A DNA stretch of 64,000 nt from a virus (IMGVR_UViG_3300035510_000237), one strand, 5' to 3'. Shown: positions 25,454-26,110, counted from the stretch's first letter. Numbers and translations are program-made. Notes: a model not told the origin generated them from the sequence alone.

Positions 25454-25482
25454 TTTGATTTTTCAAAAAATTTATTGTATAA
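25454..25482 (+). promoter_or_regulatory. class-2 promoter driving large structured RNA
   Basis: TTGATTTGATTTTTCAAAAAATTTATTGTATAATATTTATACAAA. Confidence 0.65.
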
Positions 25483-25494
25483 TATTTATACAAA

Positions 25495-26110
25495 GTTAAT
25501 AATTTCAAAATAGCTTAATTAAGATTGCGATAGAACTCAGTGAAGACAAACGCCATTGTGCTGAGGGTTCTTCCAAACTACGGTTAGCAGTAACAAGACC
25601 TTAGAGGATACCCTATTGTTCTTGAATCGGCCCATACCGCGAGATTGGGTTGAGGCTAAAGAATTTTAGCTCTGTGGGAAGAAGGCGCTGTCACAATCGC
25701 AATTAATAGCATGGTCTTATCGGTTCCGTAATAGACGCCTCAGATGAGGAAGAATCCTAGTTAGGTGGAAGGTTGGCAGTCCTTTCCAGACCTAGGAAAT
25801 GCCACTAAGGAACTTGGTAGTTGAAGCAACGAAAGTTGTGTATAAGATAAGGTCACAGTACGAGTAGCACAATTCTACCAAGACTTCACATATAAAGATT
25901 ACTTACAATAAGAAAAGATACTTTTTGTGAATGGTGTGTGAAAGTTAGAGGTAATCAATCCTTTATGGGATTTGGTATTTTGCCGGGGTAAGCTGTTTAA
26001 AGGTAGCTCCTTTAGGCACACTCTTATCTCCCCATTGGCTGAAGATAATTACGATTGAACAGATAGTAGCTCGAAGGAGCCTTTCGCAATCTTAATTAAG
26101 CTATTTTGAG
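25495..26110 (+). ncRNA. ~615-nt large structured non-coding RNA closed by a 23-bp terminal helix
   Basis: no ORF; GC-richer than flanks; 5' AAATAGCTTAATTAAGATTGCGA (25507-25529) complementary to 3' TCGCAATCTTAATTAAGCTATTT (26084-26106); own promoter; directly upstream of tRNA-Leu. Confidence 0.45.

Follow-up and report, generated by a model that had tools for sequence, protein, structure and literature searches.

The stretch at 25454-26110 of the window (the whole piece of viral DNA that was analyzed, 64,000 nucleotides) encodes a complete ROOL RNA, a divergent new member of an established class of large phage noncoding RNA (RF03087; Weinberg et al. 2017, PMC5737381). The RF03087 covariance model matches positions 25512-26099 on the + strand with a score of 320 bits, against a gathering score of 99.1, and an E value of 8e-73; the match covers positions 1-574 of the 574 in the model and is not truncated. 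The initial annotation had described the region as a GOLLD/ROOL-like candidate and had named Infernal with the Rfam models as the means of checking it; the ROOL part of this proposal is borne out from end to end, but the GOLLD part is not. Its estimate was of a large structured RNA of about 615 nucleotides; measured from helix to helix, with both arms of the closing helix, P1, the size is 613 nucleotides. The minimum free energy calculated for the 613-nucleotide RNA is −190.8 kcal/mol, as compared with −155.3 ± 6.0 kcal/mol for shuffled sequences (z = −5.9), and this value, together with the E value of the covariance model, excludes chance as an explanation. The window copy shares with the family its stems and junctions, as seen from the full-length model match, its length (588-613 nucleotides; the family mean is 581), the long closing helix and variable internal linker, the phage setting within a co-oriented tRNA array, and the invariant motifs CAGUGAAGA, GGAUAC, AAUAGACG, GUAUAAGA, GAGUAGC, GUGAAAG, and GUAAUCAAUCC, but its nucleotide identity with the other ROOLs collected is only about 50-64%. 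Taken as a whole, the reading of this locus as a functional ROOL RNA gene that a large tailed phage carries in its tRNA array, together with the scheme of maturation and cage assembly described below, is considered very likely to be correct.

The size of the RNA and its location in a tRNA array are features that it has in common with GOLLD, and assignment to another class of large structured RNA (GOLLD, a group I or II intron, RNase P RNA, or tmRNA) was therefore an alternative to be weighed. In an Rfam 15 scan of the whole window, however, ROOL is the sole match other than tRNAs, with no GOLLD match at the gathering score, and a second, permissive scan of 25300-26300 (E ≤ 1) returned ROOL and tRNA-type matches on the flanking tRNA genes, with no match to GOLLD, introns, tmRNA, or RNase P RNA, so that this alternative can be regarded as refuted. 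GOLLD is likewise a large, ornate RNA of phage and prophage tRNA arrays, and its cages, too, consist of RNA only and enclose a disordered linker, but it is unrelated to ROOL in sequence and fold, is longer (700-830 nucleotides), assembles into 10- to 14-mers, and sometimes carries a tRNA embedded in its linker, whereas the window RNA has no internal tRNA. The possibility that the region encodes a protein in an altered genetic code has in its favor the in-frame TAG codons of several genes in the window and the suppressor tRNA directly upstream. Nevertheless, with TAG as a sense codon the region stays free of stops for no more than 60-61 codons, TAA and TGA remain in every frame, and the compensatory base pair changes between homologs are those of an RNA rather than a protein; the probability of a recoded gene is thus negligible, and this reading too is regarded as refuted. 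The initial annotation had reported that the stretch is devoid of open reading frames, and this holds: TAA, TAG, and TGA stops are all present in each of the six frames of 25454-26110, and the longest start-to-stop ORFs overlapping it are of at most 48 amino acids, apart from one of 63 amino acids on the minus strand that overlaps tRNA-Leu. A recoded ORF across the region, a possibility raised in the same annotation, is also absent; recoding of any one stop gives stop-free runs of at most 60-66 codons, with a longest of 102 codons on the minus strand when TAA is read as sense, in a region of ∼219 codons. The G+C content of the ROOL stretch (41%) exceeds that of the non-tRNA spacers of the island (31%), as had been noted at the outset, and that of the window as a whole (36%).

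Homologs were collected by scanning IMG/VR with two conserved ROOL motifs, which gave 40 loci; by Rfam, 33 of these contain full-length ROOL matches, 4 contain truncated matches, and 3 have none, leaving 37 viral ROOL loci. Nine further ROOLs were found upstream of proteins related to the window ORF at 29108-30607, a profile for nhmmer was also used in the search, and 7 more were confirmed in contigs of bacterial metagenome-assembled genomes, mostly Bacillota (Erysipelotrichaceae, Faecalibacillus, Anaerovoracaceae, and Acutalibacteraceae). The closest ROOL among all of these viral and bacterial copies is at most 64% identical to the window copy, and scans of IMG/VR and the metagenome collection for exact patterns specific to the window copy yielded no near-identical sequence. 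Searches of 50,697 GenBank phage records with the 657-nucleotide region (blastn) and with the surrounding 20 kb (megablast) returned nothing; the window comes from a large tailed phage that lacks a close relative in GenBank.

The consensus ROOL structure is backed by covariation, and this includes the window copy. The analysis of covariation among homologs, also suggested in the initial annotation, was carried out on a MAFFT alignment (A1) of 30 ROOL sequences from viral contigs, one of them the window copy, onto which the Rfam structure was projected from the window sequence. Standard pairs are formed in 71.6% of the cells, as compared with ∼50% when the partners are slid by 1 column, changes on both sides are found at 130 of the 150 pairs, and the covariation score is 0.482 versus 0.22 for the slid register; none of 500 shuffles comes up to these figures. 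In ten helices the pairing is 80-100% and compensatory changes are abundant. It should be recognized that the slid-partner control is somewhat flattering, favoring the unslid register, because the structure was projected from the window sequence, but the conclusion is secure, given how large the effect is and given the independent covariance-model score. The window copy and the other 29 ROOLs have 46 invariant and 61 nearly invariant columns in common, including AAUAGA, GAGUAG, GAUA, and UAAUCAAUCC. A possible covariation between the GGAUAC loop and GUAUAAGA proved inconsistent when the alignment was inspected by eye and was dropped.

The RNA is closed by helix P1, an inverted repeat of 33 nucleotides in which 25501-25533 pairs with 26081-26113 with 94% complementarity and 2 mismatches; its columns covary, and it is the sole inverted repeat of at least 12 nucleotides within 25400-26200. 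The perfect core is of 26 bp, 25505-25530 with 26084-26109, so that the perfect 23-bp terminal helix recognized earlier is real but longer than was stated, and its 3′ arm had been placed off register by one base. All 21 of the other ROOL homologs tested have long terminal helices as well, of roughly 28-48 bp. The minimum free energy fold recovers P1 and many of the ROOL stems. When the structure of the model is projected onto the window sequence, both partners are present for 150 of the 159 consensus pairs and 130 of these 150 are canonical; of the 20 that are noncanonical as aligned, several lie where the posterior probability of the model alignment is low, and at one such spot a local shift would give perfect pairing of CAAUCG (25694-25699) with CGAUUG (26052-26057). 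As an analogy for maturation only, P1 can be compared with the processing stems of rRNA operons, in which the flanks of a large structured RNA form a helix of >20 bp and RNase P sites are supplied by neighboring tRNAs of the shared transcript, as is proposed here for ROOL. There is a difference, however, in that the terminal pairs of the env-120 ROOL, from 1-659 onward, covary as part of the RNA, which suggests that P1 is retained rather than cleaved off.

Structures of ROOLs have been determined by cryo-EM for env-120 (PDB 9MDS; Kretsch et al. 2025, PMC12286853) and for the Enterococcus faecalis and Lactobacillus salivarius RNAs (PDB 9J3T and 9J6Y; reviewed in PMC12990946). The env-120 ROOL is a homo-octameric cage of D4 symmetry, 280 Å across, with a disordered linker inside (PMC12286853), and the supplement to that study describes six inter-chain contacts: B1, between A38-C41 and G465-U468; B2, between G62 and A366, the latter making an intermolecular minor-groove contact; B3, between C263 and G272; B4, between G307-A310 and U332-C335; B5, between A505 and A505′; and B6, between G565 and C566′, a symmetric kissing loop that joins the two half-shells. 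These contacts were placed on the window RNA by motif and not by residue number, because the copy of the env-120 sequence is ∼9 nucleotides short. The L2 loop CGCC (25551-25554), the counterpart of A38-C41, pairs with GGUG (25933-25936), just 3′ of the conserved GAAUG and the counterpart of G465-U468, to form the two sides of B1; in env-120 the corresponding sequences are AAUC and GAUU. The B1 loops are 73% paired across homologs and covary in A1. The last 1-2 bases of GGUG are shared with an intramolecular helix, and B1 is therefore probably of 3 bp in the window RNA; a 3-bp B1 has been reported for the E. faecalis ROOL (PMC12990946). In the B4 kissing loop, UGGCA (25774-25778), the counterpart of G307-A310, pairs with UGCCA (25800-25804), the counterpart of U332-C335, and GGUA/UACC of env-120 is replaced by GGCA/UGCC in the window copy, a U:A to C:G swap. 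B4 is 88% paired in A1; as its central pair, 13 sequences have C:G, 13 have U:A, and 2 have A:U. For the nine B1 and B4 pairs together, 81.5% are paired across A1, as compared with 25-44% when the partners are slid.

A GAAA tetraloop at 25831-25834 is the counterpart of env-120 G364-A367, which contains the B2 donor A366, and the hairpin that encloses it covaries and is 82.5% paired. The counterpart of env-120 L18, the site of B6, is a hairpin, GG-UAGCU-CC (26002-26010), with a covarying stem; its self-complementary loop AGCU lies within GGUAGCUCC, and the central GC is kept in most homologs. The cage-building contacts are thus conserved in the window RNA through compensatory change. As the B1 and B4 loops are intermolecular in the cryo-EM structures, yet covary and are kept by compensatory changes, the contacts themselves appear to be under selection.

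At 25730-25749, the AAUAGACG motif, formed by invariant columns of A1, is followed by an apical hairpin, CCUC-AGAU-GAGG (25738-25749), which by alignment to env-120 is the counterpart of P7. The 4-bp stem of this hairpin is much shorter than P7, and contact B3 therefore cannot be mapped in the window RNA. Published oligomers are octamers for the env-120 and E. faecalis ROOLs and a hexamer for that of L. salivarius, and published work indicates that the region of the apical hairpin changes ROOL stoichiometry; in the L. salivarius RNA an ultrashort apical stem goes with the hexamer rather than the octamer (PMC12990946). We infer that this stem is the same element as the 4-bp hairpin of the window RNA, with the consequence that a hexamer versus an octamer is not predictable for the latter. 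A variable linker of 53 nucleotides, 75% A+U (25873-25925), coincides with the large unaligned hairpin loop of the model, differs in length and sequence across A1, and is the counterpart of the disordered linker inside the env-120 cage (PMC12286853).

The gene lies among 14 tRNA genes, all on the + strand at 21371-27752, in a window that also encodes phage proteins. A sigma-70-like promoter with 10 of 12 consensus matches, TTGATT (25455-25460) and TATAAT (25478-25483) separated by a 17-nucleotide spacer, precedes the RNA, and the predicted transcription start is near 25490, about 10 nucleotides 5′ of P1. This site is one of six copies of an island repeat of ∼40 nucleotides, TTTGATTTT..AAAAA..TTG.TATAATATATATACAA. 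Twenty copies of the pattern TTGATT-N16-18-TATAAT were counted in the window, as compared with 0.30 expected, and 18 of them are on the + (coding) strand; the pattern appears to represent a genuine promoter family of the phage, and the class-2 promoter placed ahead of the RNA in the initial annotation stands at the sequence level. Members of the family are usually followed by ATATATACAA and are mostly found just upstream of ORFs or groups of tRNAs (for example, at 7907, 10353, 15824, 21222, 25455, 29018, 30738, 33262, 41828, and 56509). Many relatives of the window copy are situated 16-24 nucleotides behind a tRNA, whereas the window copy has a recognizable promoter of its own. The nearest upstream gene is a tRNA with anticodon CUA (25272-25346, + strand; Rfam tRNA 61.4 bits), an amber suppressor that ARAGORN labels "Pyl," which ends 154 nucleotides before P1. 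Downstream, tRNA-Leu(UAA) (26128-26215, + strand) starts 14 nucleotides 3′ of the helix, in keeping with the earlier observation that a tRNA-Leu follows immediately. No terminator-like site is present between ROOL and tRNA-Leu. Among 43 ROOL loci, all of the neighboring tRNAs share the strand of ROOL, with no exception on the opposite strand. Of the 38 loci with a tRNA upstream, 22 have one within 100 nucleotides; for the 33 loci with a tRNA downstream, the corresponding figure is 8.

Several other elements of the island can be recorded here. A motif, TAAAGAC-N3-6-CAGCAA, occurs 5-6 times, 75-140 nucleotides upstream of tRNA genes (23922-23948, 24187-24217, 24433-24459, 25130-25163, and 26667-26700, with a similar sequence at ∼25353-25375), and could be a second class of promoter or a processing signal. 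Fragments resembling parts of tRNAs, called by neither ARAGORN nor Rfam, are found at 26771-26802, 27517-27541, 27555-27583, and 25417-25428; they include T-arm/acceptor/CCA-like ends (AGTTCAAATCTTATTTATGGCACCA and TGCGGGTTCAAATCCCGCCTGGCTCACCA) and a D-arm-like stretch, and the spacer between tRNA-CUA and ROOL contains the tRNA-like GGTTCAAGTCC. These may be degenerate or unusual tRNAs. The 90-nucleotide "tRNA-Ala(agc)" called by ARAGORN at 22758-22847 has no Rfam tRNA match and overlaps the end of the ORF at 22377-22781; the call may be spurious, or the tRNA atypical. In many ROOL-bearing phage tRNA arrays, a tmRNA gene is located 1-2 kb from ROOL on the same strand (loci L023, L025, L029, L031, L032, L035, L037, and L039, and also L013, L024, L026, and L044), and one locus (L010) has a tRNA-Sec-like gene.

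The suppressor tRNA has a counterpart in the protein-coding genes of the window, several of which are whole only when TAG is read as sense. The ORFs containing TAG are at 20315-21055, 26882-27517, 28094-29026, 34125-34844, 49779-50747, 53666-54934, 54996-56099, and 57312-58085; the HNH and GIY-YIG homing endonucleases have 3-8 in-frame TAGs each, a protein with Amidase_2 and SH3 domains has 2, and an N-terminally extended PhoH also contains them. In 5 of the 7 ORFs tested, a Pfam domain match spans the TAG positions. Among stop-to-stop ORFs of at least 150 amino acids on the + strand, the stops are TAA in 31, TGA in 7, and TAG in 1. These features suggest a partial recoding or suppression of TAG that is concentrated in mobile-element and cell-wall amidase genes, and the tRNA-CUA suppressor is apparently needed for the in-frame TAGs of the amidase/SH3 and homing endonuclease genes. 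Genes further downstream, at 40591-41796, 44256-46043, 51350-52780, and 53903-54934, encode an RNA ligase (PF09414), a nicotinamide phosphoribosyltransferase, an SPFH/flotillin-like protein, and PhoH, respectively; together with the tRNAs, ROOL, and a homolog of the major vault protein, they make up an accessory region with a flavor of RNA repair and NAD salvage.

This major vault protein (MVP) homolog, of 804 amino acids, is encoded at 30809-33223 (+ strand), 4.7 kb downstream of ROOL. It resembles the eukaryotic protein in a Pfam MVP_shoulder match of 75 bits and, in a phmmer comparison with the MVP chains of the PDB, a match over ∼430 residues with an E value of 6e-19, and it is 39% identical to ORFs of the huge metagenomic phages LR756500, LR756501, and LR756503; viral MVPs have been noted in one preprint only (10.1101/2023.11.10.566534). 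The adjoining gene at 29108-30607 (+ strand) encodes a 499-residue protein with DUF2828 and DUF7788 domains, a weak vWA match, and the PHROG 850 label "RNA-binding protein." Proteins of this type with 55-71% identity are found in at least 80 large viral contigs (loci L041-L120), an MVP homolog is located near the vWA protein in 28 of 69 loci, and the vWA protein is directly downstream of a tRNA array in each of the six nearest relatives covered by the Rfam scan. A relationship of the vWA protein to Ro60/TROVE has no sequence support, as neither phmmer nor a 25-sequence profile returned a Ro60/TROVE protein or any PDB chain at E ≤ 1.

The most likely account of the locus is that the RNA is made together with the tRNA array, is set free as the tRNAs are processed, and then assembles by itself into a cage of RNA only. 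Transcription would proceed rightward from the sigma-70-type promoter of the phage, and read-through from the upstream tRNA genes may add to it; because no terminator precedes the downstream tRNAs, the primary transcript would run on into tRNA-Leu, tRNA-Asn, and tRNA-Thr. Since tRNA-Leu begins 14 nucleotides after P1, cleavage by RNase P at the 5′ end of this tRNA would set the 3′ end of ROOL and release an RNA of ∼640 nucleotides. By analogy with the known structures, the RNA is expected to fold into the conserved flat monomer, clamped by the 26-33 bp of P1, and the monomers would be joined through B1 (CGCC/GGUG), B4 (UGGCA/UGCCA), and the self-complementary AGCU of B6 into a closed, hollow homo-oligomer composed of RNA only, most likely an octamer and possibly a hexamer, with the A/U-rich linker facing the lumen. 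It should be noted that the formation of a cage by the window RNA is carried over from the published cryo-EM studies of other ROOLs.

An RNA that is a genuine ROOL but acts as a monomer, whether as a scaffold, a decoy, or a ribozyme, with cages being a property of the RNA in vitro, would be compatible with the fact that no cage has been imaged in vivo for any ROOL, with the possibility of an artifact raised in a review (PMC12990946), and with the sophisticated biochemistry suggested for the class by Weinberg et al. (PMC5737381). This is judged unlikely, since the intermolecular B1 and B4 pairs covary across phage ROOLs, with compensatory changes in the window copy, and the published oligomers are stable down to 12.5 nM. 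The sporadic distribution of ROOL could also be taken to mean that the window copy is a decaying, nonfunctional remnant within the tRNA array: Rfam detects no ROOL within 10 kb upstream of the same neighboring gene in the six closest relatives, just 8 of the 50 related loci whose upstream flank is sufficient (at least 8 kb) contain ROOL, and noncanonical pairs occur in the alignment to the model, as described above. Decay is, however, very improbable in an RNA that covers the model from end to end with a score inside the range of other phage ROOLs (263-406 bits), retains all of the invariant motifs, complementary contact loops, and a perfect 26-bp helix, and is preceded by a promoter of the phage's own family. 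A functional, cage-forming ROOL is accordingly the reading retained here, with the qualification that the six relatives, closest by the neighboring protein, have tRNA arrays without ROOL in the Rfam scan, and that ROOL is thus dispensable or accessory in this group of phages.

The contents of such a cage are a matter of speculation. During infection it might enclose or sequester a macromolecule of the translation or tRNA sphere. The L. salivarius ROOL is as abundant as 16S rRNA, yet nonessential, and the authors of the published studies have proposed tRNAs, ribosomal subunits, or other macromolecules as cage content. A more specific proposal, of rather low probability, is that the ROOL cage is a working part of the tRNA program of the phage and not a passenger of the array, either storing, shielding, or timing the release of phage tRNAs, including the suppressor, or sequestering a host translation factor or tRNA-cleaving factor. 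The strict co-orientation of ROOL and tRNAs in 43 of 43 loci fits this proposal; the complementarity of the linker to the 14 phage tRNAs gave a best z of −2.55 (tRNA-Gln), which is not significant after correction for 14 tests. Still more speculative is a role for ROOL as the RNA partner of the vWA-domain protein and the MVP homolog, which are encoded 3-5 kb downstream. Co-occurrence argues against such a partnership, as 0 of the 37 motif-found ROOL loci have an MVP homolog in their flanks and 2 of the 37 have the vWA protein; with ROOL itself in so few of the related loci, a tight functional module of the three was rejected.

ROOL is among the very few natural RNAs known to form closed cages without protein. 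The window copy leaves the existing knowledge of the class unchanged and is a divergent addition to it, being no more than 64% identical to the others collected. Its genetic setting is tidy, with its own predicted promoter and a probable 3′ processing site, in a phage that has RNA-related genes as well as a suppressor tRNA. The two intermolecular kissing loops, rewritten by compensatory changes, provide independent evolutionary evidence for selection on the contacts from which the cage would be built.
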